Shown here piece by piece: positions 76 to 22,400 of a stretch of DNA of 64,000 nucleotides. Each line of letters begins with the position of its first letter. Position 1 is the stretch's first letter. The stretch lies in NCBI GenBank assembly GCA_963557785.1, contig CAUWBF010000003.1, positions 101,830 to 165,829 on the forward strand. The letters run 5' to 3'. The position numbers and the translations under genes were made by a program. This DNA is from an uncultured Clostridia bacterium (GTDB lineage: Bacteria > Bacillota > Clostridia > TANB77 > CAG-508). The notes beneath the pieces were generated by a model, which was given only the letters and a program-made list of their open reading frames with translations, did not search any database and was not told the origin of the DNA.

Positions 76-942
76 ATGAAAAAGTTTTTAAGTTCAATTT
101 TAGTTTTTATGCTTGTTATAGCTAGTTTTACAGTATATTCTAATGCAGCTGATGCAGCTATTAAATTAGCTCCTTCATCTTCTACTGTAACTGTTGGAAA
201 AGAATTTAATGTTATTCTTTCTCTTACAAATTTAGGACCATTTGCTAATGGAATAAACTCTGCTAGTGGAACTTTAACATATGATTCTAATTACGTATCA
301 TATGTATCTATATCTGGACAAGGATCTTGGGGTGTCTCACAATTCAATCAATCTAACGGAAAATTCTTAGCTCTTACTTCTAACATGGATCTTGTCGGAA
401 CTGGACCTATATTATCAATAAAATTCAAATTAAATTCATTACCATCTGAAACAACTAAATTAGTAACTTTAAATAATGTTTCAATTACAGATGGAGAAAC
501 AGATGAAATTGAATTTTCAACAGTATCTGTAACTATAAAAGCTCAGGAACCAGCTCCCGTAAATAATACTGTTACTAATAATATTGTAAATAATACTGTT
601 AGTAATACTGTTAGTAATACTGTAAATAATACTGTTGTTAATAACACTGTAAATAATATTGTAAATAATACTATAAACAATACTGTTGAAAATAACACAA
701 TCAATAATATTGTAGAAAATAACGTTATAAATAACACAGTTAATAATACTGTTAATGATACAGTCATTAATATAGATGGTTCAAATACTTCTAAAAATCA
801 AACAACTGCAACTTTGGATGATTCAACTACAAGTAAAGTAATACCTTATACTGGTTTTAATACATTTATTATAATTGCTATTGTAGCTTCTATTGCCTCA
901 GGAATTTACGCATACTATAAGTATAAGAATTTAAATATATAA
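76..942 (+). CDS. Secreted cohesin-domain protein with Asn/Thr/Val-rich linker and LPXTG-like (IPYTG) cell-wall sorting signal
   Basis: AGGAGG RBS at 64-70; signal peptide (MKKFL...SNAADA); cohesin-like motifs (TVTVGKEFNVIL, SGTLTYDSNYV, GPILSIKFKL); NNTV repeats; C-terminal IPYTG + hydrophobic helix + basic tail (YYKYK). Confidence 0.8.
   Translation: MKKFLSSILVFMLVIASFTVYSNAADAAIKLAPSSSTVTVGKEFNVILSLTNLGPFANGINSASGTLTYDSNYVSYVSISGQGSWGVSQFNQSNGKFLALTSNMDLVGTGPILSIKFKLNSLPSETTKLVTLNNVSITDGETDEIEFSTVSVTIKAQEPAPVNNTVTNNIVNNTVSNTVSNTVNNTVVNNTVNNIVNNTINNTVENNTINNIVENNVINNTVNNTVNDTVINIDGSNTSKNQTTATLDDSTTSKVIPYTGFNTFIIIAIVASIASGIYAYYKYKNLNI
563..768 (+). repeat. Degenerate 12-nt tandem repeat (AATAATACTGTW-like) encoding (NNTV/NNIV)n linker
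   Basis: Directly visible periodic aataatactgtt/aataatattgta units inside the 288-aa ORF. Confidence 0.85.
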
Positions 943-965: not shown

Positions 966-1001
966 AAAAACATCCTTGTGATTTCTCACAAGGATGTTTT
1001 T
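966..1001. terminator. Bidirectional rho-independent terminator between convergent genes
   Basis: Perfect 16-bp inverted repeat AAAAACATCCTTGTGA-tttc-TCACAAGGATGTTTTT with A/T tails, between stops at 942 (+) and 1005 (-). Confidence 0.92.
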
Positions 1002-1004
1002 ATT

Positions 1005-1440
1005 TTAGAATTTTATATAAAGTGTTGGGTCTACATCGTTACCATATCCGCTAGATGTTCTTACTTCAAAGTGTAAGTGATGTCCTGTAGAATTTCCTGG
1101 ATTTGAGTCTGAAGCATCTCCACCTTCTAATCCTATTGTTTGTCCTTTTGTTACTTTATCGCCTACGGCTACATCTATTCTAGATAAGTGGGCATAGAAT
1201 GTATATATTTCTACTCCGTTTACTATGTGTTTAATTTCTACACTGTTACCAAATGCTCCGTTGTTTCCTGCAAACACTACTTCACCGTCTGCTACTGCTA
1301 ATATATCTGTATGCCAACTTGCTCTAATATCTATACCTGTATGCTTACTTTCTACTCCTGTTGTAGGATGTATTCTCATTCCATATTTTGATGTTATTGT
1401 ATAGCTTTCATCTTGAGATAATGCTAATGGTAATGCAAAT
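1005..1440 (-). other. M23 family zinc metallo-endopeptidase domain (C-terminus of giant protein)
   Basis: ITSKYGMRIHP...KHTGIDI (HxxxD, ~1326-1343), YAHLSRIDVAVGDKVTKGQTIG, NSTGHHLHFEV (HxH, ~1063-1079), VDP: complete canonical catalytic motif set. Confidence 0.93.
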
Positions 1441-4400
1441 ACATTATTTTGTCTAATATATAATGATGTTTCATCTCCTACTCCTTCACTGCCTTCTTCA
1501 GTGTCTTCTTCTTTTCTTCTCATTCTTCTTCTTGATACTTCTTCTGGAATAGTCCATATTTGTTCTTCTATATATTTATTATAGTTTCCTCTTAATAATG
1601 TTCTATCAAGTTTATCTACTTTACCGTCTTCGTTTAAGTCATATACTTTTAGTCCATTATTATCTGTTACTTCTCCATAATTATATGTTAGAGCTGTCAA
1701 GTCACTTAATTCTATTTGTCCATCACTATTTACATCACCTGCGTAAATTTGTATATCATCCATTGGAACTTCTTCGTTGGTGTAAACAGTTATGTTTGTT
1801 AATCTATACTCTAAGTAAGATTGTTTTGTTACAACAAAGTCATATTCACCTTCTATTAATTGTAATTCATATGTTCCTTCTCCAGAAGTAGTAACTTGCG
1901 CTACAACTTCTCTTGGATCTATTTCATCATTTTCTGTTCTTTGGTCTGATGTTTTATATACTGTAATTGTTGAAATATGCTCGTTTCCACTAGCTGTTTG
2001 AGTAATAACTTTTCCTGTTACTTTTGCACGTTTTATAACATTTACTGTATATTCTTTAACATCATTATTTAATGCTGTAACTTTAACTTTGATAACTTTT
2101 GTATCTACATCAGCTAAATCTATAGTTTCTGTATTTGTTGCTCTAGTTTCTGCATTTTCATTTATAGAAATCTTAGCTAATTCCATATTAGACGTAGCTT
2201 GTAATTCTACACTACTACTATTTTGATCAACATATACTGTATATGTTCCATCTTCATTTGCTTCTATTACTTCGCTATTTGCTTTTATTTCTTTTAAACT
2301 GTTATCATCAGAAGTTTTTGTAATATTTAAAGTAACTATTCTTCTTGTTCCATCTGCACTTTCAAGTGTAATTGGAACTTGTGTATTTAATTCTTCTAAT
2401 GTAACCTCTTTAGAAGTTTTTCTTAAAGTAAAGTCTCCATCTATTATTTGAATTTTTGTTGTTTTAGATGTTGCTATTACTTCTACATTTGCTGTAGTTA
2501 CTGAGTTATCAACTTCTACTACATAGTTTCCTGTGCTATCTTGTATGATTTCATTTCCATCTACTGTAATAGTTAATCCTAAATCGCTTAGTTCATCTAC
2601 TGAACTTACTCTATTTATAATTAAACTATATTCTTTTGAAGCTAATTTATCATCTGCAAGTACTGTTACTGGAATTATTGTTTCGTCTTCATCTAATGTA
2701 TAATTTTTAAATGTAGCATCTGCTAAACTTGCTTCCATATCTGAAATTTGTACATATTCATCTTCGGCTACTGATGTTGCATTAATATTTATACTTTCTT
2801 TGTCTTGTAGAACATCAATTTTATATGTTGTATCATCTACTTTATTTACAAGTCTTCCATCTACATAAATTGAATTTAATCTCAAGTCATCTTGTTTTCT
2901 GTTTATAATTAACTTATATTCTTTTAATGTTCCATCTTCAGCAACTACTTGTATTGTTTTTCTAACATCTTTTGAACCTTCTGTATTAAGTTCTTCAGTA
3001 TATTCTGATTGTGTATACTCTGCATTTTCGTCAATTCTTACGTATGCATTACTATCAGCTAATTTAATTGCAAGATTTGTAGTATCAATACCAACTTTTA
3101 TAATTGTTTCATATACATCATTAGAACTTAAAATTATTTCTTCATCATTTAATGTTAGTTTTTCTATTGTTGTATTATTAGATAATCTTGTTAGGATGAT
3201 ATTATATGTTTTTACAACTATTCCATCTTGAGCTGTTATAACTACTGGTATCGTAATTACTTCTTCATCTGTACTTATTGGTAACATTATTTCTGTTGTA
3301 CCTATTTTTGCTGTTTCATCACCAATTTTGATAGATGCCTTTTCATTCTCAGGAATTATTTTAATTCTTACTGCATCTTGTAATGCTGTAATATTTTTTC
3401 TATAGATTAATCCTGTATCATCTGGTTCTGTTAATTCTCCTCCGATGTCTATTTCTTTAACATTTGCATTATCAGATTTCTTTAATATTCTTAAAGTATA
3501 TGTTGTTAATAATCCTGTTTCAGAAGTTACATCAATTTGAATTTCCTTATCTTCTCCAGCTGTACCTATTTCTCTAGTTATATTTCCTAAGTTTGATACA
3601 TCTCCAGAAGTAACTACTGCGTAATCATTTTTAGCTTTAATAGTAAATGTTTCAGATTCCTTAGTTCTTAATACATAAGCTGTATATGTTTTTGTTCTAG
3701 CATCATACTCAGTTACTAATTCATCTCCACTTAATATATATTCTATTTGATTATCATTAGAAACTCTATTTATTTCTAATTGTTTTGTTGTTACATTTTC
3801 TCCATCTTGTGCTGTTACTACAATGTTTAATGTTACTATCTTCTTATCGTTAAATACTATTTCTTCTGTAGATACATTTTCACAAATTGCACCACTCTCA
3901 ATTTGAACTGTTGCAAATTTGTTATTAGATGTAACTTCTACTGTTGCAGAATCGTTTGTATCTAATACATTGATATAATATTTACCATCTTGTTCAGTTA
4001 TTGTTCTTCCATTTACTTTTACAGATTTAATACTTGAATCCTCAGAAATTCTTAGTAAACGTACATTATATTCTTTTTCTGTTCCATCTTCTGCTGTTAT
4101 TGTTACTGGTACAATAGTTTCATTACTATTTACTATAGTAGCAAATGTTAATTCTTTTATACCTGTATTTTCACCAGAAGTAATTGTTGCGTATTCGTTT
4201 TCGCTTGTTACTTTAATTGTTGCTACTGATGCATCTTTTGCTATAAATTTAGTATAACTATCTGTTTCAGCATCGTAGAAGTCTATTGCATTTTCATCTA
4301 CTAATATATTTTCTAAGTTTGCATTTACTGAAATTCTTGTAATGTATAATGTATGAACTCCAACTGTACCATCTGTTGCTACAACTTTAATTGGCACTTC

Positions 4401-7400
4401 AACTGTTCTACCACTTAAGTTTGTTATTTGAATTTGTTTTTCTACTGTTTCTAATTCTCCTGAATTATTTATATCTATTTGTGCATATTCTTTAGCAGTT
4501 TTTGCATAAATAGTTGTTTTATCTAGTGTTTCTCTAATACTTGCGTAGTAGTTTCCATCTTCGCCTAATGTAGCTTCAACATTGTCTACAGTTACTTTTT
4601 CTAGATCTGTAACACTTGTTTCTTTTACTACATATAATGTTCTTGTTTCTTGTTCTCCACTTTCAGCTGTTGCTTTTATAGAAATTTCTGTAACTTCATT
4701 TGGTAAATATGCATCTCCTGATGCGCTACCAATTCCTATTACTTCATTATTTGCATTTATAGATGTATATTCATCCTCAGCAACAATTTCTAAGTTTTCA
4801 GTATCTAGTGGGTTTGTAACAATTGTCATATATGATTTTTGTGTTGCATTATAGCTTAATAATTTTCCACCTAATTTTAAGCTTGTAATATTTGTATTTG
4901 TAGATATTTTTGTAATTACTAATGTATGTATTTGCTCGTTTCCAGCTTGTGCTGTAACTTTTATTTTTATTTCTGTTGTTCTTGTTGTTAATTCTTTTTC
5001 ATGTGTTGCTTCAGCTGTTTCGTATGCTATGTCTTCTATAGTTAATTTTGCATATTCGCTTGAAGCTTTAACAACTATTGAACTTAATTCTTCTTTTGTT
5101 TTTACAATATAGTTGTCGTCCATTACTTTAGCTAATGTTCCATCAACTTTAATTGTTTCTAAGCTTGTATCTGTTGATTTCTTTAATACATTTACTGTAT
5201 ATGTTTTTGTATCTCCATTTTCAGCTGTAACTAATAATTCTGTGCTAGACATTCCGCTTTCTAGATTTAAAGTTATAGATGTGCTATGTAATTGTTCATC
5301 TGTACTATCGGCTTTAATCTTAGCATTTTCATCTTTAGTTACTGCTTCAATAGTTACTGAATCAACTGTAGTATCAACAAACATTGTGTAGTCATCTTTT
5401 CCATCAGCTTTAGTTTCTATACCATTTACTGTTATATAATCTAATTCTGTGTTATTAGAAACTTTTTTAATTGTTAATGTATAATTTTCTATATTTCCAC
5501 TTTCTGATCTAACTTTTACTGTTATATCTTTTGTTTTTACTCCTGTTAAATCAATTGTGTAAGAATTTTCTTTAAGTTTAAATTCAGAATCTTCTATTTG
5601 TACCCAAGCATTATTACTGTTGCTTCTTGCAACTATTGTATAGCTTTCATCCTTAATTAGAACTTCTGCCATATATCCATTTTCTTGTAATATTGCATCA
5701 TTATTATCTACTCTTAATGATTCTAATGTTGTATCTGAATCTAACTTAGTTATTACTACCACATATTCTTTATAACGTTCTGATTTTTCTGGATCTCTTA
5801 CTGTTACAATCACTTCAACTTCAGATTCATCCATTGGAATTTCGAAAGATGAAGATCCTGATTGCTCTCCAATTCCATCTACAGAAACAATCGCATCATT
5901 ATTTTTAGCATCTACTGCTAATATAGCTTTTGTAAGTTCATTATTTACTCCTACATGGTATTTTCCGTCTTCTTCAAGAACAGCTTCTTTTTCTTCTACA
6001 ATTATTGAGTTTAATCTAATATCGTTTTCAAGTTTTATAATAACTGTATATGCTTGTTCTAATCCGTTTTCAGCTTTAATTGTAAATGGTACTTCAGTCT
6101 CTTTCTCAGTTATAGTTATATTCTTTGTAGCTTTTACATCTGTGTAATCTGAGTTTTGTATTTTAACTTTAGCAAATTCATTATTTGCTGTAACTGTTAA
6201 GTTTACATCTGTCATAGTATTTGGTACTTCTATTGTATAAACAAGGTCTGATGTTCTTTCAACAAATTCATCTTCTATTCCTTCTGCTTCCACACTTAGT
6301 ACTGTGTTATCTGATGAGAATTGTTTTAATACAACTTCATGTTCTTCAGATGAACCATCTTCTGCTACTACTTTAACTTTAACAATTTTTTCTTCTTCAG
6401 CTATTTCTACTAAAGATGTTGTAGTTTGTACCGCTTCTTCTAATCCATCTATAGTTACTAATGTATTTTCATTTTCTGCTACAGCTTTTATAGTAACTTG
6501 TTCTTTATTTCCTATTTTTACAACATATTTTCCATCACTATCTTTTTCGATTAATTCATCATCTACATATAATTCTGAAAGGTTAGTATTATTAGACATT
6601 TTTCTAATTGTTAATTCATATTCATCTAATGTTCCATCTTCGGCCATAACTGTTATTTTTACTGGTGTTTCTGTTACTCTAGTTGGAACTGTAACAGTAT
6701 TTCCTTTAAGAACATATTCTGAACCATTTATAGAAACTTTCGCGTTTTCATCTGCAGCTTCTGCATAAACATCTATACTTTGTGTATTATATCCTATTGT
6801 TGCTATATATGTTCCTTTATTATCTTTAACAACATTATTTCCATCTACTTGAACACTATTTAAGTTTGTATTTGATGATTTATTCTTGATGATTAACTTA
6901 TATGTATTTATTGTCATTTGATCTTGAGCTGTTACTGTAAGATTTACTATCATTTCTTCTTCAGATTTAATAACTGATTTTGTTAATGTTCCTGTTACTG
7001 CATCTTCATTTTCGTATGCTACTTTAGCTTTTAAATCTTCAGGTACTATGCTCATATTAATGTCTGTTATAGATTTATTTACTTTAGCTACAAATGTATT
7101 TGTTTCTTCGTTGAAACTTGCTTCCTCTCCATTAACTACTATTTGTTTAATATCTGCAACATCTGGTATTCCATGAACATATACTTTGTATTGTTCTTCT
7201 GTAACACCATCTTGAGCTTTAACAGTAATTAATACAGTCATTTCACTTCTTGTAACATTTATATTTTGTGTACTTACACTTTCTTCGAATATGAAGTCAT
7301 TTATTTTTACTTCTGCAAATTCATCTTCTGATATAGCTATAACTTCAATTCCTTTAGTAATGTAATCTAACTTAATATCATATGCATTATCTTCTGTAGT

Positions 7401-10400
7401 ACTTGCAATTGGTTTTACACCATCTATTGTTACAGATTTTAATCCTACATTACTATTTAATTTTTCAACTGTTAATGTATATTCTTCTGTTGTAATTCCA
7501 TCTTGTGCTTTTATAATGATTGGAACTATTGTTGGGTCTTTGCTCATATCTACTGTTGCTGTATTTGTTTGAACCTCATATGTTCCGCCATTTATACTTA
7601 CTTTTGCTAATTTAAATCCTGATATTGCACTTACATCTAATTCTTCAAATATTCTTCCTACCTTAGCAATAAAGTTATTTGTTCCTTCTTCACGTTCTGC
7701 TGTAACTGTAAACTTATCGTTTCCAATTGTAATAGAATCGATACTTGTATCTTTAGATGGTTGATAAATTATAAGTGTATAATTAGCACGTTTTGTACTA
7801 TCTTCTGGATCTGTTACTGTAACTATATGTGTGTTTGCTTCTTCTTTAGTTGATACTTTTCTTGTTGAAGTTCCTTCTTGAGCTCCCATATCATTTATAT
7901 TTACATACTCAGATAAAATGCTTGCCATTGCTGTTACATTTGCTGTTGTTTGTTTTTTACTTAAGTATACTTCATATATATCTCCGTTTTTTTCTGCCTT
8001 TTGTCCTTCAACTGTAATATATGCTAATCCTAAGCTTTCTTTTTCTTTTTCTATTGTTAATGTGTATGTTTTGCTCATTTCCATAGCTGTTACAGTTATT
8101 TGAACAGTTGCAGTTTCTTTATCTTTGATATCTACTTTTTTACTTGAAACATTTATTTTAGCTTCACTATTATCTATTTTTACATTTGCTAATTTGTAAA
8201 CTGATGTTGCTGTAATATTTGCTATATCAGTATCTGTTGGAACAACTATTGCATATTCTGTGTCGCTTACTCTTAGTGCTTCTTCATTATTTATACTTAA
8301 ATCTTCTAAGTCTAGTACCTTATCTGCTTTATAAATTGTTAATGTATAAACTTTTGAATCTTCACTTTCTGATGTTACAACTATTTCTACTTCTTTAGAA
8401 TCTATATCTTTAGTTTCAACATTTCTTGTTGAAGTTGCAGTTTCTGGTTCTTGTCCATCTATAGCAACCTTAGATTTTTTATCTTTTGCTGTAGCTACTA
8501 CTTCAGCTAAATCTATCTCTTCAGAAACTACCATTGCATATTCTGTATCACTTACTTTTACAGCTTTCTCTTCATTTACTACTATATCCTCTAAATCTGT
8601 ATTATTTGAAAGTTTATTTACTATTAAATTGTATCTATAAACAACACCATCTATAGCTTTTACTAAAAATTCTATTGTTTGTGTATCATCATTTATGTTT
8701 ATTTCTTTTTCTATACTTCCATATTCCCAACTTGTTCCACCATCGATGCTAATTCTATCTGTATCGTATATAGATTTAATAAATAATTTTGCTGTATTTT
8801 CAGTTGTTGCTATTGTTGCTGTGTATTCAGATACATTTGTTATTACCGCTTCTTCTGAATTTACTGTTATATTTTCAATTCTTTGTTTTTCTGAAGGCAT
8901 TACTACTCTTATAGCTTCAGATTGTGCTTTTGTTGCCTTGTCTGTAGCTGTAATTGTTGTCATACCATAACCTTTAGTTGAAACTATTCCATCTTCTACA
9001 GTTGCTACACTTTCATCGCTAGATGTATATGTAAAGTCTGTAAGCTCTCTTGTATTATTATTTAATACATTGAATACATCATAATTTAATTTTAATGTTT
9101 CTTCTGCATTTATATCTAATACATAATTGTTTGGAGTAATTGATAATGTCTTCTTTCCAACATATGTAAATTCTTTTGAATCTTCATATGTTTCGTTTCC
9201 TAATTGTCCGTATGTATTATTTCCAGTTGCATAAGCAAATCCATCTTTTGTAATTAAGTAATTTGTATTATATCCGTTTCCTAATGTAAATACATTATTT
9301 ATGCTTTCAAGTTTTGTTGGAATTTCTACGTTTTCTGTAGTTCCTAATCCTAATTCACCGTTTGCATTTTCTCCCCAAGCGTATACATTTCCATCTTTAT
9401 CTAATGCTAATGCATTATTTCCTTTTGCTGATATATCTACTATATCTCCATTTGTATATAAATCTGTTGCTTCCCCATTTGTAACTTTTACAATATTACC
9501 ATCAGCTTTTAGTATGATAATACTTTCGTTCATACCTTGTGCTTTTACAGCTGTTGCTATTTCTGGCATTGCTATATCACCAAATGTATATACTTTACCA
9601 GTACTATCAATAGCTATTGTATATTTTGGTCCTGCTGCAATACTTACAATATGTTCTGCAATTTGATTTAATTTTGTAGGTCTTAATGAATTTTCTTTGC
9701 CTTCTGTTCCTAATTGTCCATTTTCATTTAATCCCCATGTATATACATTTCCATATGAATCTAATGCTACTACGTGATTGTCTCCTGTAGCTATTTGGAT
9801 AATGTTTTCTAATCCTTCAATTTGAGAAGGTTTCTTAACATTAAGTTTGTTTCCTTGTCCAAGTTGTCCATATGTGTTATCTCCCCAAGACCAAACTGTT
9901 CCATCATTTCTTAATGCCATTGCAAATTTGTTTCCAACAGAAATATCTTTGTATGTTGAAAGTATATTGATATTGTTTGGTATATTACTTGATTTAGCTA
10001 ATTCATTTCCTAATTGTCCTTCAGAGTTATTTCCGAATGTCCAAATACTTCCGTCAGCTTTTAATGCTACTGTAAATTCTTTTCCACCTTGAACTTTTGG
10101 AACATTATTATTATCGGCTTTAATAACTTTTACTATGACAACTAATTCTTTATTAGTTCCTTTTTCTGTTACTTTAACCCATGTTGTACCAACTTTATGT
10201 CCTGTTATATTTCCATTTTTATCAACTGTTGCAATTTCTGGATTTAATGTTTCATATGTAAATTCTGATTCTGACTTATTTTCACTATATAATATGTTAA
10301 ATTCAAAGCTTGCTATTACACCAGCATTTACAGTTTCATTAATTCCAACATTAATTTCTGATTCTTTTACATAAGATTCATCATTTCCTATTTTTACAGG

Positions 10401-13400
10401 AATTCTACTATTTGTTCTTGTAGCTACCTTAGATGTTCCATGATAGTAGTCTCCATAAGCCCAAACTGTTCCATCATATTTAGAAATCACACTATATGTA
10501 TTTCCTGCTGATATATTCATTACATCATCTAATGATTCTAGTTTGCTTACTGTTGTAGAATCTATTGTTGTTCCATTTCCTAATTGTCCAAAGTTATTTG
10601 ATCCTACATTTAATATTTCTCTATTATTATTTAGAAGCATTGTATATCCGTATCCAGCAGATACTTTCATTATATTATTCATTCCATTTACTTTAGTTGG
10701 TTCTTTTACTGTTTCTGTTGTTCCATTAGCTAACTGTCCATTGTTGTTGTAACCAAATGTATAAATTTCTCCATATGCTGTAAGTGCAATACTATGATTG
10801 TCTCCAGCTGAAATATATCCTACTGGTTCGTTTATATCTAATTCTGCAAATGAATCTGTTTTAAATTCTTTACTTCCTGTTTGTCCAAATACATTCAATC
10901 CTGAAGATAATACTTTACCATATTTATTTAATAATAATGTATGATTTTTTCCGATTGAAGCATCTATTATATCTGTTACATTATTTACTCTTGTTGGATA
11001 TTCTACATTGTTGTATGTTCCAGTTCCTAATTCACCATTAGAATTTTGACCCCATACATATACATATCCATCAGTTGTAATTGCTATACTTTGATAATTT
11101 CCTGCTGCAATTTTATCAATATTCTTTAATCCTAATTTTGTTGGTGTATTTGTACTTGTTCCTATTCCTAATGCATAATTATAGTTTCTTCCAAATACAT
11201 ATACTTCGCCACTAGTTGATAGAACTAAAGTATGTTCTTCTCCAACTGCTACTTGTTTTGCTTTAATTCCTGATGGTAAGTTAACTTGTACAGGTTCATC
11301 TTTGTCTGTATTTGTTCCATCTCCTAATTGTCCATATGTATTTTTTCCATATGCCCAAACTGTTCCATCAGCTTTTAGAATTACAGTATGAGATCCACTT
11401 GATACTACTGCTGGTACTTGTTTTGATAAGCTGCTTACTGTAACACAACCATCTCCACCTTTTCCTCCAGCAACACCTACAGTTGATTCTCCACCTTTTG
11501 CTTCAATTGTTCCATAGTTTACTGTATTGTTTGTGTAAATATTTACACTTCCTCCACCTGATGCTCCACCTGAACAAATTATTGAATATGAATAATCTGT
11601 ACTTATACTTGGTGAGTTAACACCATTAGCACTAATTGTATTGTTATTATCTAATGCATTAGCATAAATATTTAAAAGTCCACCTGTTCCGTTTTCTGAA
11701 ATATAGTTCTTTGGTGTTGCTCTATAGTAGCTATAAGAACCTGTTCCATTTCCTGCACCACCAAGAGATATTTGACCATATCCAGAACCATTGCTTGAGC
11801 ATACAACACCGTTACTTCCTGCTCCACCAACTGAAGATCCGTTAGCTGATACAGCATACCAGCCTCCACCACCATCAGAGTTGGCAGCTCCTGAACCTGC
11901 ACCTCCAGAGTAACTTGTACCTGTACCACCTGCTCCTATTTGTATAGCAGCAGTATAGTTTCTTCCAGAACCAGTTCCTCCACCACCTGTTCTTCTGTCG
12001 CTTCCGTTATATCCGGCATTACCGTAAAGTACTGTACCTGTTCCTGATGTATATTTAGAGTTTCCACCTTTTGCACCTACTGCTGGAACATAATCATATT
12101 TTCCATATGCGTCTTTCCATAAGTAAACATTTTCTCCCTCTGCTTTTGCTCCTCTTGCTGTCATTGAAATTGTTCCGTTATTTTCTAGTGTTCCAGTTAC
12201 ACATAAAGTAAATCCTTTTGGTCCACCATAAGTGTTACCATATGTAGTTACTTTAACACCATTTTCAACTGTTAAGTTACCATTTACTTTTACAACTACC
12301 ATTCTTTGAGCATATGAGTTTTCTGTTGCAACATCTGTTGCATCTCCGAAGATTTTATCTTCAGCCCATACTTGATCTTCTTGGAAGTTATAGAAGTGTA
12401 TTTTATAATCTACAGTTTCATCTATTCCGTTTACTCTTAAAGTATATTTTCCATCTGGTAAATCTAAACTTTTAACTCCTTGAATTATACTATCGCAGTT
12501 TATGTATCCTTCTCCATCTGCTAAATATCCACTTACTTTGCTTATGCTTTCGTTAGACTCTAATATCTCATCTTCTTTTGGTAAAATTGTAACTTGTACA
12601 ACATTTATATAATTTGTATTGTCCTTTTTAACTACAATAGTTGTATTTCCTTCTTTAGCACCTGTAACTGTTCCGTCTTCAGCAACTTTTGCAATAGTTG
12701 TGTCTCCAGATTCGTATGTTACATCTGCTATAGCTTTTACATTTTCAAACACATTAAATGTTTTATTATATGCTTCAATTTTGTATGTTTGATCTTTTTG
12801 TATAGTAACATTATTTACATTTAATCCTAATTCTTCTAATCCTACAATATTTAGGTTATAGCTATTTTCATATAGTTTATTTCCTAAGTTACCATATTTT
12901 CCAGATCCCCAAGAATATACATATCCTTCGTTATTTATAATTGCACCATTGTTATATCCTACTGATAAGTATAATACATTTTCGAATTTATCATTTTTAG
13001 CAGGTAAAACTTGAACTACTGATTGATCTGTTGCTAATTTGTATGAATTGTTTGATCCCCAAACATATACATCTCCGTTTTCTAAAACTGCCATACTAAA
13101 TCCGTTTCCGGCTTTTAGTTGTTTAATTCCTGATAATACTTGTCTTCCTGTAGAATCTTTAACTATTACTGGTACTGTTGCATTTGTTTTGTTTCCATTT
13201 CCAAGTTGTCCATATGTATTATTTCCAATACCAAATCCTAAACCATCTTGTGTACGTATTAATGTATGATCTGATCCAGTAGATACTTCTATTGCATTTG
13301 TTACATTTTGTAACTCTTGTCCATTTGATATTTTTGCTACTTTTCCATTAGCTTTTACTGCATATTCTGCAGATATATCTACGGCATTCTTAATGTTTGC

Positions 13401-16400
13401 TACTTTTGTAGCATATCTTGAATATCCATTTCCCCAAACCCATACATTACCTTCGCTATCTAAGGCTACAGATTTATTTCCTCTTGCTGCTACTTTTACA
13501 ATGTTTTCTATTTTATCACCATATATATCTACTACATATACTGGTGCCATTCTAAGTTCAGCTGTCATATCTCCTAATTGTCCATTGCTATTTAATCCTG
13601 TAGCTAAAACGTTTCCATTTACATTTACAAACAATGTATGGTTATCACCTGTTGCTATATCTACTATGTTAGACATATTTCCTACTCTTGTAGGAGCTGA
13701 TTTTGATTCTTTGTTTCCTATTCCAAGTTGTCCGTATCCATTGTATCCCCATGCCCAAACTTCTCCGTTTGATTTTAAAGATACCATGAATTCATTTCCT
13801 ATTTCAACTTTTGGTACTGCTATACTTCCAGTTTCAGTTACATTTATAAATGCTGATGTAGCATCTCCTGATATTGTGTGTATAACTTTAATTTGTGTTC
13901 TTCCTAATTTTTTACCTGTTACAATTCCTTTTTCTGAAACTGTTGCTATTTCTGTATTTACAGATTCATATGTAATATTTTCTGAATCAATAACATCTTC
14001 TATTAAGTTAAAGCTATTATTTAATGATCCAAATAATTCTACATCTTCATCTACACTTATCGTTGCGCTATGAGGTTCAACATTCATTACTTCTTTGTTA
14101 ATAGATGTTGGTTTATATATAGCATCATATGTTCCATTACCAAGTTGTCCATATCCATTATATCCCCATGTATAAACTTCTCCATTTATATCTGAAGATA
14201 CTGTGTTATATCTTGTTGCTGATATTGTTTTTGCATTTTGGTAATCTGTTGCTTCTACTAATGTATTTCTTTTTGTTTCTGCTTTGTTATTTCCTAAGTT
14301 GCCATATCCATTGTATCCACATCCATATACTTTTCCGTCTTTTGTGATTACTAAAGCACTATATCTACCAGCAGTTATTTCTATTACATCTGTCATTTCA
14401 CCATTGTTGCTTGAATTTTTCATTTTTACTGGTGTATTAACATAGTTATAGTTTCCTATTCCTAATTCTCCATATCCATTATATCCCCATACCCAAACTT
14501 TTGAATCTGCGTCTAGAGCATAGTAACTATCTACTTCTGAAGCTATTTCTACTATATTAGATAATCCTTCTACCTTGGTTAAGTTACTTGTTCCTAAGTT
14601 CCAAACTGTTCCGTTTTCTGCAAGAACTAATCTTTCTGTAGCTTCTACTACTTTTAAGTGGAAATCAACTTTTACAGGAGTTTTTCCATATCCTACACCC
14701 CATACATAAAGTTCACCATCTTTTGTAATAGCTGTGCTTACATTTTCGTCTGCATATATTTTAGCTATATTAGATAATCCCTCTACTTTTGTTGGTATAG
14801 CTTTTGAATTATTATCTCCTAATCCTAATTGTCCATTTCCATTATAACCCCAAGCGTATACTTCTCCATCTTTTGTTAGAGCTAAACTATGGTTATATCC
14901 TGCTGCAACATCAACAATTGTTTTGTCTCCAATTTCTAATGTTACTTGTTCTGGTTCAGTTGTTCTTATTCCTGTAAATTTACTATTTCCTAATTGACCA
15001 TTATCGTTGCATCCCCATGTCCAAACTGTTCCATTTTGTTTTAATGCTATTGTATGGTTATGTCCTGCAACAATTTTTTCTCTTGTTACTTTTGTTTCTC
15101 CAATTACATCTACTGTAATTCTTGTTTTACTTGATATTTCAGGTATAGTTACTGTTATATAAGCTCTTCCTGCTTTTATAGCTGTAACTTTACCATTTTC
15201 ATCTACTGTTGCTACTTCTTCGTTTGAAGATTCATAAGTTGTTTCTACATTTTCTTCTGTATTATATAGGATATTAAATCCATATTGTAATTTGCTTTCT
15301 ATTTGATATTCAGGGTTAGACATATTTATTGTAACTTCTGAATCTGATACTGATATATAAGGTTCGGTTGCGCATACTAGACTATTTCTGTTTACTACTG
15401 TTCCATCACCTAATTGTCCATATCCGTTATATCCTATAGACCAAACTGTTCCATCATTTTTAGCAAGTACAGAGAATGCATTTCCACCTGTTATTATCAT
15501 GCTATCATCTACTTGTGTACCGTCTTTTTCTTTCATATAACTTGGTGTTGATACAGTTCTTGTATTTCCTTGTGCTAATTGTGCATAGTTATTTTGACCC
15601 CATGCTAATATCTTTTCATCATTTGTAATTGCATAACTTGTGTAAGTTCCTGTACTTATAGCATTTACATTTGATAATCTACCGCCATCTATTCCTTTTA
15701 TTGCTTGTGGTACTGGTCCACCGACATCTGTTAATGATTTATATGAGTTATTTCCCATACCCCAAACTGTTCCATCTTCTCTTAATGCTAATACATGATT
15801 TGTTATAGATGCTGATATATCTACTATATTATTTAAGCCAGATACTTTTACTGGTACATATCTTGTAGTATATGTTCCATCTCCTAATTGTCCATATCCG
15901 TTATATCCCCAAGAATATACTTCTCCAGATACTCTTATTGCATAACTGCTGTTTGCTGCAGCTTCTATCTTAGCTATTCCTTTTAGTTTTTCTATTTTTA
16001 CAGGTAATACTGAATTTGTACTTGTTCCATTTCCTAGTTGTCCATATCCATTATAACCCCAAGCATATACATTTCCTTCAATGTCTAATGCCATAGCAAA
16101 GTTATTTCCAGCTGCTACTTGTACTATATCTTTAAGAACATCCTGTCCATCTACAGATTTTACTTGTACTGGTAAATATGCATCTTGAGTATTTTTGTTA
16201 CCTAATGCTCCATATGCACCACGACCCCAAGTCCAAACTGTTCCGTCTTCTTTTAATGCAACTACATTATTTTCTCCTACTGCAATATCTATTATTCCTG
16301 ATACTGTTGTCTTTGTAGGAACTCTTCTATCTTTTGTATCTCCTGTAGCTAACATTCCATATATATTATTTCCCCAAGTCCAAACTGTTCCATCAGATTT

Positions 16401-19400
16401 TAAAGCAATTACTGTATTGTTTATTACTTCAATTTTTGGTATAGCAATATCACCTTCTGCTAATACATAAACATTTACACTGCTTTCTACTCCAGTAACT
16501 TGTTCTTTTGCAGATATTTGTGTTTTACCTTTAGCTACTGATGTAATTTTTCCATCTTCTGTTACTTTTACAATATCTTCGTTTTTACTTGTGAATTTAA
16601 AGTTAGCTCCTTCAACCTCATCATATAATAGGTTAAATCCTACCATTAATTCAGCTGTAACTACATCTTCTTTTCCTTCACCACTTATTCTAATTGGTGT
16701 TTTATTAAATTTAACTCCAAAGTCGCTTATACATACTAGTTCTGTTTTTTGTACTTGTGTTGAATCTCCTAATTGTCCTAATTCGTTTCTACCAACGCTC
16801 CATACTGTTCCATCTTTCTTAACTACAGTTGATGATCCTTGTGATGCAGATACTTCTAATACATCTGTTATCGCTTCACCATTTACTTTCATTACTACTG
16901 GAATTGTATTGTTTGATGTATTTCCATTTGAAGCTTGACCATAAGCATTGTATCCCCATGTAACTGCTGTGTTATCTTCTTTAATTGCTACTACATGCCA
17001 TAATCCAGTTTCTATTTGTTTTACATTGCTTAGAGCACCTGTTTTTGTTTCATCTTTAACTTGTACAAATGTATAACTATTTGCTGTATTTCCTTGTCCT
17101 AATATACCATGTCCATTGTATCCAGCTGCATACACATTTCCTTCGTTATTTAAAACAACTACTGAACGTTCACCAATTTGTACATCTTCTAAGTTAGTTA
17201 GTCCTTCAACTTGTACAGGGTATAATTGGTTACTTGTATTATTTAATCCAAGTTGTCCATATCCGTTATATCCCCAAGTATATAAGTTTCCATTACCATC
17301 TATAGCTGCTGCTGATTCGTTATTTGCTGCTATTTTATAGATGTTACTAATCTTTCTTACCTTTACAGGAGTTTGGCTTTGAGCTGTTGAACCATTTCCT
17401 AGTTCTCCATATCCATTATATCCAAATGCATATACTTCTCCTTGTATAGTAAGTGCTAATGTAAATCTATTTCCTGCTGCTACTTGAACTACATTTAATA
17501 ATCCTTCAACTTTTTGTGGAGTTACTGTACTTCCTGTTCTTCCTAATTGTCCGTTTGAGTTATTTCCTGTTGTCCAAACTGTTCCATCTTCTTTTAGGAA
17601 TACTGTATAGTTGTATCCGGCTGCTACATCTATAACGCCTTCTATATCAATTTTTGCAGGTTCTACTCTATTTGTTGTATCTCCTAATCCTAGTTGTCCA
17701 TAAGCGTTATATCCCCATCCATATACTGTACCGTTAGATTTTAATGCTATTGTATGGTTTGCACCGTTTACTACTTTAGGGTTTGTTATATCTCCCTCTC
17801 TTAATACTCTTACTGTTACTAATGCTTTTGTTTCTGATTTATTACTACTAATTTCTATTGTTGTTGTACCATATTCTACTGCTGTTATAGTTCCATCTTC
17901 AGAAACTGTTGCTACTTCTTCGTTTCTACTTCTATAAGATAAAATTTCATCTGTATAGCTTGAATATAATAAGTTAAATCCTACTATTGTATTTACATTA
18001 ACTTTAGCTGTTCCTCCAATTTCATTTATAACAACTAATACTTTATCTACATCTAATACATCGTTAGAAATACATACAGGTTTACTTGCATTATTTGTAG
18101 TATCATCACCTAATTGTCCATATCCATTGTATCCTACAGTGTATACTTTACCTTCTTTTGTAGCTATACTTGATGCATTTCCTGTAGATGCCATAGCCAT
18201 TATTTTTTTATCTTCTTGAACTTTAGTTAATAATTTTGCATTTACTTTATTTTCTGTAAATAAGTTTGCATATCCATTATATCCTGCTACATATAGATTG
18301 TTTTCTGCATCTTCTGCAAATACTACATTTTTATGAGCATATATATGTTTAATGTTATTTGCTACTCCTTCAGAAGTTTTCATTTCTGCTAAAGTTGTTC
18401 CATATGTATATGTTCCTCCTGTAGCTAGTTGTCCATATCCGTTATATCCATATGTATATGCTTTATTATTTTCATCTAACAATACTGTATAGCAATTTCC
18501 AGCAGCTACTTCTATTATTCCTTGTATTGGATTATTATCTGAACCTAATACTTTCATAGGAACTACATAATTGTATGTTGTGTTATGTTGTCCTAATTGT
18601 CCATGGTGATTATATCCTGTTGCATATACAATTCCTGTTGAATCTAAGAATACTGCGTGGTCTGTTCCTGCTGCTATTTGCATTACATTAGATACTTTTC
18701 TTACTTTTATAGGTGTGTAGTTTGAACCAGTTGTATTATTTCCAAGTTGTCCATATCCATTATATCCCCATCCATATACTGTTCCATCTGCTTTTAATGC
18801 TAGAGTATATAAGTTACCAGAAGATATAGCTGTAATATCATCTAATACTCCTACTCCATTTACACCTTTAACTTGTACAAATTCTGTACTTCTTGTTGTA
18901 TTTCCTTGTCCTAATTGTCCATGACTATTATATCCTGCCATCCATACAGTTCCGTCTTTTCTTAAAACTACTGTGAAGTTATCTCCTGCTGCAACATCTA
19001 TTGCGTCTTCAATATTAGTTTTCATTGGTACTGCACTAGATGAAGTGTTACCTATTCCAAGTTGTCCATATCCATTATATCCCCATGTCCACACTGTTCC
19101 GTCATTCTTTAATGCTACAAAGTGGTTTGCTCCTGCTTCAATCTTTGGATAAACACTACCTTGTTCACCATTAACATTTACTTTAACAGCTCCGTATATA
19201 CCATTTTCTTCATCAGAAATTCTTATGTATGTTGTTCCTTCTTTTACAGAAGTAATAACTCCATTTTCATCTACTGTTGCTATGTTTTCATCTAATGATT
19301 TAAATGTATATTTTTCTGTTTCTATTACATCTAATAATAGGTTAAATCCTGTTACAGTTGTACATTGAATAGTATCTTGTTCTCCACCTTGGTTAAAGTC

Positions 19401-22400
19401 GAATATTTTCTTATTTGTATCTATTCTTGGATCACTTATGCAATATGGTACAGTTGAAGTCATTGTTGTATCGTTTCCAATTTCTCCATTACCATTATAT
19501 CCTGACATGTAAACTGTTCCGTCATATTTAACTAATGCTGTTGTTCTCCAACCTGTAGCTGCAAGCATAACATTATTAATATTTCCGTCTAAGTTTTCAT
19601 TTAGTGCTTTTCTTGGTAAAGATACTCTAGTTGCTGTTGTATTATTTCCAATTGCTCCATATCCATTGTATCCCCAGCTGTATACTTCTCCTGTTTTATT
19701 TACTGCAACCATTGTATGGTATTTTAAGTCTATGTCTACGATATCACTTAATACATCTGTATTTCCTTCATTTCTTACTGCTACTGGTAAAGTTTTATTA
19801 CCATTGTTGTTTATACCTAAAGTTCCATAATATCCATATCCCCAAGTATATACATTACCATCTGCAGAAAGAGCTCCTGATACATGGTATCCAGCTGATA
19901 TAGAAATTATTGCATTTAAGTATCCTGTTCCAGCTGTATCTTTTACTTGTCTTGGTATATACATATTGCTTGTATTACCTTGTCCTAATTCTCCATTAGC
20001 ATTGTATCCTGTTGCCCAAACTGTTCCATCTGCTTTTAATATTACTGTATGATGTTTTCCAGTTTTTACATCTATAACATTATTTATAGGGTCTACTGCA
20101 TTATATCCTAACATTCTAGTTGCATAGTATCTATTTGATGTATTGTTTATACCTAGTTCTCCATATCCATTGTATCCCCATCCATAAACATATCCATCTT
20201 CTGTTACTGCAAATGCTGAATATTGTCCTGCATCTATTTTTTCTATGTTTGTAAGTGGTGTGTTGCTATCAATTTTAACTTGAACGAATTGTAATGATCT
20301 TGATGTTGTTCCATTTCCAAGTTCACCATGTCCATTATATCCTACTGCCCATACTGTTCCGTCTTTCTTTAATACTAATGTGAAGTTTTCACCAGCTTTA
20401 ACATCTACAACATCTTCTACATCTATTTTTGTAGGTGTGTATTTGTTTTGTGTTGTACCATCTCCTAATTGTCCATATCCATTATATCCCCATGTCCATA
20501 CTGTTCCATCTGCTTTTAATGCTACTATATGGTGATTTCCTATAGATATTTTTGGTGAAACTATACCTTTTTCTGTAACTACTGTTACTTGAACTGTAGC
20601 TATTTTATCTGTTGCTGGATCTCTTACTATAACTCTTGTTACACCATAATCCTTAGCTGTAATTAATCCATTTTCATCTACTGAAGCTATTTTTTCATTT
20701 AAACTCTTATATGTTAATCCTTCTACTTTAACTTCTTCTGCATTAAATAAGTTAAATGATGTCATTATAGAGTCTACTTGTATGCTTTCATCTAATTGTA
20801 ATGTAGCTTTCTTTGGAGTTGCTGTTAATATTGAAGAAATATACATTGGTTTGTATGATTTTTCTATTCCTGGGTCAGCTAATTGTTTACCTGTATTTAA
20901 TCCCCATACTACTACTTTTCCATCTGCTGCTACTGCTAATGTATGATATGCTGTTGAAGATGAACCTTGGATTGAAATAATATTTTCTAATTTTCCTGTT
21001 CCATTTAGGTTAGTTACTACTGTTGGTAATAACTTATATGAAGTTGTGTTACTTATTCCTAATTGTCCATTTCCATTATGTCCCCATGTATACACTGTTC
21101 CGTCTTTTGCTAAAGCAACTGCATTGTAGCTACCTGCAGATATTTGAGAAATATTTTCTAATATTCCTTCTCCATCTGTAGATTTAACTTGTACTGCCAT
21201 TTGGCTATTAGCTGTAGAATTATTTCCATTTCTTCCATGAGTTCCGTATCCTGCTGAATATACAGTACCATCAGCTTTTAATAAGTATGAATTAACTTCT
21301 CCTGCTGCTACTTTAACTATATCTTCTAGTTCGAATCCTGTAGAACTATCTAATACTTTTACTGGTATTGTTCTGTTTGCTGTAGAATTATCTGCTAATT
21401 GTCCATATTTATTATATCCCCATGCCCATACTGTTCCATCTGAAAGTACAGCTAAAGCGTGGTTCCATCCTGCTGCTATATCTATAGCACCATTTATGTT
21501 AGCTTTAACTCTTACTGGTAAAGTTCTATTAGATGTTGAATCATCTCCTAACTCACCATTTCCATTATATCCAAATGTATATACTCTACCATCTTCTGTT
21601 AATAATACTGTAAAGTATCTACCTGCTACTACTTTTCTAATATTTTTAATAGCTTCTGTTCCTTGACTATTTTTAACTTTAACTGGTTCATAGCTTGTAG
21701 TAGTATTTCCTTGTCCTAATTGTCCATAGTTGTTTAATCCCCAAGCCCATACTTCTCCATCTTCAGTTAAAGCAAGTGCATGACTTTCTCCTGCTGCTAT
21801 TTGTTTAATATTTTCTAAGCCTTCTACTTGTGTTGGTACTGCAGTTGTTGTTTTAGTTCCATGTCCTAATTGTCCATTTCCATTTGTACCCCAAGACCAA
21901 ACTGTTCCATCTGCTTTTAATGCTACAGAGAAGTTTGATCCACCTACAACCATAGGCTCATATTTTAATTCTTCTGTACTATCTATTACTTTTACAGTTA
22001 CATATGTATGTAATGAATTTTCTGTATCTGTAATTTTTACTAAAGCAGTACCTGCTTTATTTCCTGTTATTTTTCCTGTTTCATCTACTGAAACTACCTC
22101 TGTATCTAAACTTTCAAAAGATAATTTTCCTGTTTCTAATTCTCTATCGAATACATTATATTCTTCAACTATGCTTGCAGAAAGCATATCTTCTGCTTCT
22201 AAGTTTAGAGTATATGTTAATTTTTCAGATTTTAGATATAAAGTTCCTACTCTCTTTAAGTATGTAGATGTGTATCTTGTTTCATCTCCTAATTGCATTT
22301 GTCCATTTGCACCTGCACCCCATACACTTCCATCTTCTTTAATTACAAATCTTGTTCCTGACCATCCTGTTCCTGAAATTGTAAGTACATTTTCTATATT

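Follow-up and report, generated by a model that had tools for sequence, protein, structure and literature searches.

In Ruminococcus flavefaciens, anchoring of the ScaE type relies on a single, sortase-linked cohesin that binds the X-dockerin modules of ScaB and CttA, and a beta-sandwich placed before a dockerin is known from such X-dockerin dyads. Conjugation systems of Gram-positive bacteria use peptidoglycan hydrolases such as PrgK, which has a LytM domain. Here we analyzed a stretch of 64,000 nucleotides (the window) from an uncultured Clostridia bacterium of the pig gut, in which one gene encodes a protein of 15,449 amino acids (aa), hereafter the giant, that ends in a predicted dockerin followed by a peptidase domain of the M23 family. 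We ask what this terminal peptidase may be for.

Two published works come close to parts of this locus. In its treatment of dockerin-bearing cell-wall hydrolases, the review PMC6403190 puts forward the idea of a 'lyticome', names lysozyme activity and cites Morais 2016 and Bensoussan 2017. The text of preprint 10.1101/2023.11.21.568195 reports RCC1-type giants of gut Oscillospiraceae, described as consisting wholly of repeats, as well as dockerin repeats on giants of Clostridia.

Judged from its sequence, the end of the giant (the last ~330 residues) is a cassette in which a beta-sandwich similar to an X-module precedes a type I dockerin, and a flexible linker leads on to an intact M23 domain (Table 1). 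The original prediction concerned positions 1005-1570, a span that runs from the stop codon through the M23 domain and into the linker, as far back as residue ~15262; it described an intact M23 with full HxxxD and HxH motifs behind an internal dockerin, and on both counts it holds. The dockerin, ~200 aa from the C-terminus by Pfam coordinates, combines a profile score above cut-off with two calcium-loop repeats of the D-x-N/D-x-D-G ... D form, DVNSDGQIELSD (residues 15207-15218, window 1701-1736) and DLNEDGKVDKLD (residues 15239-15250, window 1605-1640). The giant terminates 6 aa past the Pfam match to M23, which contains HTGID (residues 15338-15342, window 1329-1343), the middle histidine of YAHLS (residue 15389, window 1188-1190) and, as its HxH motif, HLH (residues 15426-15428, window 1071-1079).

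Table 1. Features of the window discussed in the text, with positions counted from its first letter
Feature	Position	Strand	Description
288-aa wall-anchor protein	76..942	+	signal peptide, cohesin, stalk, IPYTG, hydrophobic helix, KYK tail (predicted)
Hairpin of 16 bp	966..1001		T/A runs on its flanks, between convergent genes; -21.7 and -22.1 kcal/mol, z ~-7, both strands
Giant gene	1005..47354	-	one open frame of 15,449 aa (open reading frame analysis)
M23 domain (PF01551, Peptidase_M23)	1026..1346	-	Pfam E 1.7e-25, 89.5 bits against a cut-off of 28.7; 93.5 bits in genome search
Linker between dockerin and M23	1347..1592	-	opens with conserved W-x-x-P (window 1545-1556); includes a low-confidence, fast-evolving charged stretch
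RRRMRRK basic patch	1512..1532	-	residues 15275-15281; then acidic EEDTEEGSEG (window 1482-1511)
Type I dockerin (PF00404, Dockerin_1)	1593..1742	-	Pfam E 1.9e-9, 38 bits against a cut-off of 22.9; 40.7 bits in genome search
Beta-sandwich, CarboxypepD_reg-like	1761..1982	-	similar to X-module, directly before dockerin; Pfam 21.6 bits, below the cut-off of 32.3
N-terminal 35 aa of the giant	47250..47354	-	K-rich start, hydrophobic stretch of 17-18 residues, then AVIA/IEKK
485-aa protein	55812..57269	-	cadherin-like domain, beta-sandwich and C-terminal dockerin, without M23

The active site is preserved in the homologues compared. When the query was aligned with 16 short entries that cover the whole cassette, chosen from the best 150 homologues, the five catalytic residues (H219, D223, H270, H307, H309) proved invariant in 17/17 sequences. 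Among 44 homologues with a dockerin motif at most 700 aa upstream, for which HxxxD served as the selection criterion, the middle histidine is present in 44/44 and HxH in 43/44, the one miss being a truncated fragment. In AlphaFold2 (AF2) models, the predicted local distance difference test (pLDDT) reaches 80-95 in the M23 core, and block means of 75-92 are obtained for the sandwich before the dockerin; the pairing of sandwich and dockerin also occurs in homologues of the giant. Foldseek assigns the M23 domain a probability of 1.00 of matching DipM, NGO1686, EnpA, LytM and lysostaphin, and solved M23 enzymes match it at 30-37% identity (Foldseek, phmmer). A Nei-Gojobori estimate of the ratio of nonsynonymous to synonymous substitution rates (dN/dS) between the two giant paralogs of the genome, a crude method applied to one pair, gave 0.32 for M23 (127 codons, 80% identity), 0.54 for the dockerin, 0.61 for the beta-sandwich and 1.56 for the linker (53 codons). 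The M23 of the giant is under purifying selection and, with its motifs complete, is likely an active enzyme.

To what extent the cassette recurs was assessed with the last 249 aa of the giant as query against 1.84 billion representative proteins, among which 87 matches fell below 1e-30. We inspected 152 rows (the query, its in-genome paralog and the best 150 representatives), 143 of them with HxGxD. A dockerin repeat lies no more than 260 aa upstream of HxGxD in 38 of the 152, namely the query, the paralog and 36 database clusters. The HxxxD histidine of these 38 is found 111-122 aa from the C-terminus, bar two truncated fragments (72 and 98 aa), and because this distance is nearly constant, M23 is always the last domain. 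Twelve long homologues of up to 5,000 aa, chosen for length from the best 150, all end in M23 as well; RCC1-propeller bodies are present in 10 of the 12, and most add cadherin-like and Big_2 domains. The paralog itself, which follows the plan RCC1 ... dockerin ... M23, is encoded at the edge of contig C2 by an open reading frame (ORF) no shorter than 5,880 aa. Across the proteins compared, a family of RCC1/Ig giants from gut Clostridia demonstrably has the cassette, in this domain order, as a conserved feature.

Independent samples contain the same region. Positions 900-2900 of the window were found in 20 sequencing runs from 15 studies, mostly of pig gut, one of these studies perhaps being the source of the window DNA; 19 runs contain at least half of the sampled words of this region, and a bovine-gut contig of 33,037 nt spans it with 8 differences and 0 gaps. 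No RNA run was among those listed for positions 900-2900, which was taken as evidence neither for nor against expression. The same join of M23 to giant in 38 proteins and in contigs from independent runs rules out an assembly artefact. Searching genome contigs with the cassette alignment and two M23 motif patterns returned 80 loci, mostly ordinary M23 genes from many phyla and none informative on giants; only L006 covers the dockerin too, at 31% identity. When the 550 aa that precede the dockerin were used as query among proteins of up to 2,750 aa, 3 matches were obtained, too few for a census of giants with and without M23.

For the remainder of the giant, Pfam was run in four pieces, three of 5,000 residues and one of the last 399. 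The body comprises 46 RCC1-like propeller matches (17 + 20 + 9 in successive pieces), three ALK/LTK glycine-rich domains, Big_2 and other Ig-like domains, and 7 cadherin-like sandwiches. The composition of the N-terminus indicates that it is probably a Sec signal peptide, presumably cleaved at AVIA/IEKK, where we place the site by the -3/-1 rule; full-length homologues have a similar N-terminus (for example, ...VFA/T). Scanned for promoters, the region upstream of the giant yielded 7 sites where 5.5 were expected, a difference too small to be informative. The three ALK/LTK-type domains (PF12810) lie in the first third of the giant and are unusual for a bacterial surface protein; one is located at window ~36400-37200 on the minus strand (residues 3407-3642), and another begins directly behind the signal peptide. 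The genome (G000 in our sample) is low in G+C and assembled to 1.72 Mb in 25 contigs, with 31% G+C in the window against 25-29% in the largest contigs C1-C8; 17 ORFs of at least 1,500 aa account for 9.8% of it.

The linker deserves separate consideration, since a protease-cleavable polybasic site had been proposed there. The string quoted for it, EEVSRRRMRRKEEDTEEGSEG, is present in the giant, and the claim that its basic cluster is unique in an otherwise acidic protein is correct: the only 7-residue windows with at least 5 K/R are three overlapping ones at residues 15274-15282, the only other 10-residue window with at least 5 K/R is in the N-terminal signal region, and the net charge of the whole giant (K+R minus D+E) is -685. 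Six or more K/R in 7 residues appeared in just 3 of 300 composition shuffles of the giant, which places the patch beyond chance. Conservation in homologues is another matter. Across the 38 dockerin-M23 proteins, linkers measure 9-95 aa, and a patch with at least 5 K/R in 7 is present in 7 (the query, the paralog, P0003, P0004, P0013, P0015 and P0026), each time just behind the conserved W-x-x-P and with acidic residues next. P0002, the homologue closest to the query with 88% identity across the cassette, has no patch; the pattern is not that of a conserved pro-protein site.

The DNA of the patch, AGA AGA AGA ATG AGA AGA AAA GAA GAA GAC, points to a simpler origin. Purine content is 85% in the patch core and 83% in the paralog linker, against 63% over the whole gene. 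Since one reading phase of a purine tract encodes R/K and a different phase E, simple-sequence drift in an A+T-rich genome would be sufficient to produce a basic-then-acidic stretch. No linker indel was seen in contigs of 4 sequencing runs, and the patch is thus stable within the species. We infer that the RRRMRRK/EED stretch arose in this lineage from a tract rich in purines (AGA/GAA) and does not represent a conserved processing site. Polybasic release as originally put forward is not supported, given the scarcity of the patch, its purine-rich DNA, the variable linker length and the linker dN/dS; it is possible that gut proteases cut the exposed linker non-specifically.

A candidate partner for the dockerin is encoded next to the giant. 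The two genes are convergent, the neighbouring one ending 62 bp from the giant stop codon, and its 288-aa product contains a cohesin domain at residues 27-160 (window 154-555), detected by PF00963 in the genome search with 28 bits against a cut-off of 24.1; hmmscan against all Pfam at E <= 0.01 did not list this cohesin match. The AF2 model of residues 27-160 has a pLDDT of 92-98 and the nine-strand sandwich of cohesins, and the Foldseek list for the protein consists mostly of cohesins (best 2vo8, E 6.3e-9, TM score 0.75). Behind the cohesin come a disordered, N/T-rich stalk (window 586-840, plus strand) with NNTV-like tetrapeptides (NNTV, SNTV, NNIV), IPYTG (window 841-855), a predicted hydrophobic helix (residues 263-285, window 862-930) and the basic tail KYKNLNI. 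The stalks of homologues are likewise N/T-rich and could be glycosylated, wall-spanning spacers. Because IPYTG has the form of a sorting signal, the protein is probably anchored by sortase. A [LIM]P-x-[TA]-G signal ends at least 80 of 88 homologues of the cohesin protein, with IPYTG the commonest (n=23); the second and only other cohesin of the genome ends in LPATG, and 5 sortase matches were found in the genome. A complex prediction for cohesin residues 25-160 (27-row alignment) with 73 aa of the giant dockerin (17-row alignment) scored 0.02, with a mark of 0.32, and was used neither way. The hairpin between the two genes is probably a bidirectional terminator by its folding, unlike the result of a terminator pattern scan, which listed nothing between the convergent genes. 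Beside the paralogous giant (G000:C2), the next, convergent gene encodes a membrane-anchored protein of 181 aa (L114:17685-18230, minus strand), not a cohesin, with rpoB beyond.

To trace the origin of the M23 subfamily, we used an order sample of 201 genomes. A cassette match at E <= 1e-30 occurs in 36 of them, on giants only in this genome (twice), G171, G172 and G165; the other matches are mostly proteins of ~220-290 aa with 47-59% identity to the M23 part. Of 30 small-protein loci returned, 10 were read, and 8 of these encode an N-terminal membrane helix followed by M23; in L088 and L100 the stretch printed from the first methionine has no membrane helix. In all four loci whose flanks were scanned (L087, L090, L096 and L101), a VirB4/TraG-like ATPase gene lies directly upstream of the small M23 gene, and in three of the four an MT-A70 methylase gene lies downstream. 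A site adjacent to VirB4/TraG is the position of the wall-punching hydrolases of conjugation, and these loci are probably modules of conjugative elements. Their small M23 proteins measure ~230-250 aa, and a reverse transcriptase is encoded near L090.

A FastTree phylogeny of 148 M23 domains over 145 columns, limited to rows of at least 120 aa that have HxGxD, is weakly resolved. It contains one supported clade (96*) of 113 of the 148 rows, which takes in 46 of 50 M23s of giants or long proteins, including all 43 that are dockerin-linked, together with small membrane-anchored M23s. As this clade unites the two kinds, the giants appear to share their M23 subfamily with wall hydrolases of apparent conjugation machines. 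The genome's 8 other M23 genes all fall outside the clade, at 25-46% identity to the M23 of the giant. Recent duplication of a housekeeping M23 is ruled out as the origin, given that the best non-giant paralog is at 41-46% identity and outside the supported clade.

The genome encodes 5 dockerin proteins, 3 of which carry a peptidoglycan hydrolase: the two RCC1-M23 giants and a 518-aa glucosaminidase. The other two are a 5,328-aa SpaA-fold giant and the 485-aa cadherin-like protein encoded in the window, which is a probable further client of the same cohesins. The 5,328-aa giant has SpaA/prealbumin-fold and cadherin-like domains and ends exactly at a type I dockerin, without M23; it is encoded just upstream of the window (L113:119-16105, G000:C3) and forms with the window genes an island of surface proteins around the cohesin gene. 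The 518-aa protein (L115:584-2140, G000:C1:37583-39139) consists of an Atl/SagB-like glucosaminidase, SH3_3 and a C-terminal dockerin. Its N-terminal domain matches Atl and AtlE/SagB (6fxo, E 3.9e-12; NF052642, E 4.6e-8); PF01832 did not detect the glucosaminidase domain in the search of its own genome. The glucosaminidase family is present in 152 of the 201 genomes, including 76/77 and 74/77 in the two main families, and most matches stop short of the dockerin and have a different C-terminus. Because the family is so widespread and mostly dockerin-less, the protein looks like a housekeeping-type autolysin that uses the dockerin here for wall targeting. In total, the 1.72-Mb genome gives 16 M23 matches, 13 of them above cut-off. 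Contig C9 bears a 540-aa protein with glucosaminidase and M23 as well as other M23 genes; it is one of four contigs (C9, C18, C19 and C20) with 36-41% G+C against 25-29% in the large contigs, at a contamination estimate of 3.11%, and may stem from a mobile element or a phage, or be contaminating DNA.

Two further genes of the window may be mentioned. Directly upstream of the giant, positions 47998-55791 (minus strand) encode a protein of 2,597 aa that contains 14 Ig-like domains of the Big_3 type and in which Pfam detected no dockerin. Between the aspartyl- and prolyl-tRNA synthetase genes lies a 147-aa ORF (59457-59900, minus strand) with no significant family match.

We propose, with a probability of about 0.45, that the dockerin fixes the C-terminus of the giant to a wall-bound cohesin and that the tethered M23 locally cuts the producer's own peptidoglycan. 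The giant would be exported by Sec, relieved of its signal peptide and then held by its C-terminus, the dockerin and preceding sandwich plugging into single-cohesin proteins that are attached by sortase to the peptidoglycan of the producer. As in LPXTG adhesins, the N-terminus would project outward. The M23, separated from the dockerin by a linker of 9-95 residues, would then sit at the outer face of the producer's wall and cleave peptide cross-links around the socket, possibly to make room at the base of the fibre, to assist wall turnover or to detach the anchor. Cuts of the lysostaphin type release sortase-anchored proteins, and in one variant the M23 would free the cohesin socket and so shed the fibre. 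Four observations fit the model: the cohesins have sorting signals, a housekeeping-type glucosaminidase also bears a dockerin, the M23 has relatives of conjugation type, and no immunity gene of FemABX type lies nearby. In this last respect the loci do not resemble bacteriocin loci: no FemABX-like gene lies beside either giant, and the genome's single FemAB-family gene is at C6:95862-96839. This lone gene suggests a cross-bridged wall, a typical substrate of M23 enzymes.

Several observations speak against our proposal. Among the 201 genomes, RCC1-like domains occur in 18, and there are 7 RCC1-bearing ORFs above 2,000 aa. The original prediction had staked itself on homologous giants mostly carrying the M23, and here the picture is mixed: M23 ends 4 of the 7 (two in this genome, 8,284 aa in G165 and 3,177 aa in G172), two end at a dockerin, and one (G001:C31) is outside the end-domain count. 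The two without M23 are a 6,085-aa giant of G001, which ends at its dockerin ('...NYGKKE*'), and a 3,864-aa giant of G193, which ends at a different dockerin. As these do without it, M23 must be dispensable for export and docking of such giants; thus, in domain terms, the dockerin appears as the constant part of RCC1 giants and M23 as an optional addition, and giants that lack it are left unexplained by our model. Of the functions first suggested, that of an autolysin acting on the producer's own wall is the one that fits the context better; the M23-less giants speak against opening the wall for export as an obligatory role. In a second architecture, that of P0046, a beta-sandwich and GLUG region of ~530 aa separates dockerin from M23, and tight coupling of M23 to the anchor is therefore not universal. 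Binding of dockerin to cohesin is a prediction. In the AF2 model, pLDDT is below 50 for the dockerin and the linker. Adjacency of the two genes is not a conserved trait: in G171 and G165, an unrelated gene follows the giant. Cohesins were found in G171, G172, G001 and G193; in G165, which is 100% complete and has the 8,284-aa dockerin-M23 giant, no cohesin was detected by PF00963 or the family alignment. The ~90-residue stalk of the cohesin could hold the complex off the wall. The small M23 relatives look like conjugation enzymes by their gene neighbourhood and their likeness to PrgK-type hydrolases. Finally, the wall that the M23 would cut, the producer's or another, is assigned by context, and secreted M23s that kill bacteria exist, lysostaphin and zoocin A being among the PDB matches.

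This last point leads to the alternative that the giant is a contact weapon, part of a 'lyticome', in which the giant captures other bacteria and the displayed M23 degrades their walls for antagonism or feeding, with the docked glucosaminidase on the same cohesins perhaps assisting. The M23 is likely active by its motifs, M23 bacteriolysins are among its structural relatives, and 3 of the 5 dockerin proteins are peptidoglycan hydrolases. The genome is small, yet it yields 16 M23 matches and devotes 9.8% to ORFs of at least 1,500 aa. A lysis complex of cohesin-docked wall hydrolases is proposed in the review PMC6403190, in its passages on dockerin-bearing hydrolases, and the text of preprint 10.1101/2023.11.21.568195 ties giant proteins to predation. 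We nevertheless hold a weapon to be rather unlikely, because the M23 is near the anchored end and not at the N-terminal tip, no immunity-type gene adjoins (the single FemAB being elsewhere), the docked glucosaminidase comes from a housekeeping-type family that is almost universal, and the closest small M23 relatives are associated with conjugation and not bacteriocin-like. The genes do not follow the pattern of polymorphic toxins either: the C-terminal domain is M23 in all 38 proteins (which were found with an M23 query), and the gene downstream of the window giant encodes the cohesin, that downstream of the paralog a membrane protein of 181 aa that is unrelated. A more elaborate version, which we regard as distinctly unlikely, is a lysis organelle on the cell surface, where sortase-anchored cohesins would carry both the glucosaminidase and RCC1 fibres, and M23 would breach the walls of captured cells.

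Two further explanations concern the state of the M23 rather than its target. If the polybasic patch were a protease site, a bacterial protease or gut trypsin could cut the M23 off the docked giant and set it free in soluble form. The patch has no equal elsewhere in the giant, is part of a segment for which disorder or weak helicity is predicted, recurs just behind W-x-x-P in 7/38 with acidic residues always next, and is stable in contigs of 4 independent runs. But 31 of the 38 homologues, including the one with 88% identity, have no patch, linkers shrink to 9-13 aa, the linker dN/dS is 1.56, the purine-tract DNA suggests a simple-sequence origin, and no dedicated protease gene was seen near the giant. 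The linker census thus speaks against such release, which we take to be very unlikely. Alternatively, the M23 fold might mainly bind peptidoglycan, like the LytM domains of EnvC, NlpD and SpoIIQ, and reinforce the dockerin attachment without lysis; a site right behind the anchor module would suit binding, and degenerate LytM domains with binding or regulatory roles (EnvC, SpoIIQ, DipM) are among the matches. Unlike in those degenerate domains, however, all five metal-binding and catalytic residues are kept here (17/17 and 43-44/44), and this intact active site makes a purely binding role highly improbable.

If the M23 does cut the producer's own wall, cohesin-dockerin pairing would serve in non-cellulolytic gut bacteria as a general, non-covalent mount for megadalton fibres and wall hydrolases on sortase-anchored sockets, and one family of giant proteins would come equipped with a wall-cutting enzyme as standard. 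The surface role of the enigmatic RCC1 giants found in gut Clostridia, and the way in which a Gram-positive wall makes room for a protein of 1.6 MDa, would thereby become open to concrete tests. A weapon, on the other hand, would represent a new mechanism of contact-dependent antagonism in abundant uncultured gut bacteria, and a lysis organelle a Sec-dependent, contact-dependent device for killing or feeding in Gram-positives, derived from the cohesin-dockerin plug of the cellulosome.

Each part of the system has a precedent: M23, the type I dockerin, sortase-anchored cohesins as in ScaE, dockerin-bearing hydrolases and RCC1 giants. Neither a dockerin-M23 fusion nor M23 on RCC1 giants was found in the full-text literature, a scope that leaves out subscription journals and preprint supplements. 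What appears new, in the sense that we did not find it described, is that RCC1 giants end, as a conserved trait, in an M23 behind a dockerin, and that they do so in a non-cellulolytic lineage of reduced genome whose cohesins are single and carry sorting signals. Like the giants in the text of preprint 10.1101/2023.11.21.568195, the present one is secreted, rich in RCC1 propellers and from Clostridia of the mammalian gut; that text mentions no M23, cohesin partner or sortase anchor, and the supplementary tables may list such domains. The hydrolases discussed in the relevant passages of PMC6403190 resemble it in that a peptidoglycan hydrolase is fused to a dockerin and can be mounted on a cohesin. 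They are described there as rumen cellulosome components of ordinary size, whereas here the M23 is C-terminal to the dockerin on a protein of 15,449 aa, and the cohesins are single and, by prediction, wall-anchored.

As an enzyme, the M23 of the giant is similar in fold, in its HxxxD/H/HxH zinc site and in core identity (~30-37%) to endopeptidases such as lysostaphin, LytM, zoocin A, EnpA, ShyA/MepM and Neisseria NGO1686. Those are targeted by SH3b, LysM or coiled-coil parts, whereas the M23 of the giant would be targeted by a dockerin. Its 'EGGDxxDxNPGxSTGHH' loop is longer than in the best PDB match and is common to the conjugation-associated subfamily. The nearest stand-alone relatives recall PrgK-type conjugation hydrolases, being N-terminally membrane-anchored and encoded behind a VirB4/TraG-like ATPase; by analogy, they suggest a local, controlled opening of the wall. 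Unlike these, the M23 of the giant is carried by a dockerin and linker, with no membrane helix, and is encoded outside a conjugation locus. As in the ScaE system, a single cohesin has an LPXTG-like signal, the docked protein bears a dyad of beta-sandwich and dockerin, and very large extracellular proteins would be attached to a Gram-positive wall, here through a predicted binding. In contrast to that system, there is no cellulosome, scaffoldin or carbohydrate-active enzyme, and the catalytic domain stands behind the dockerin; the clients are RCC1/Ig and SpaA-fold giants together with peptidoglycan hydrolases.

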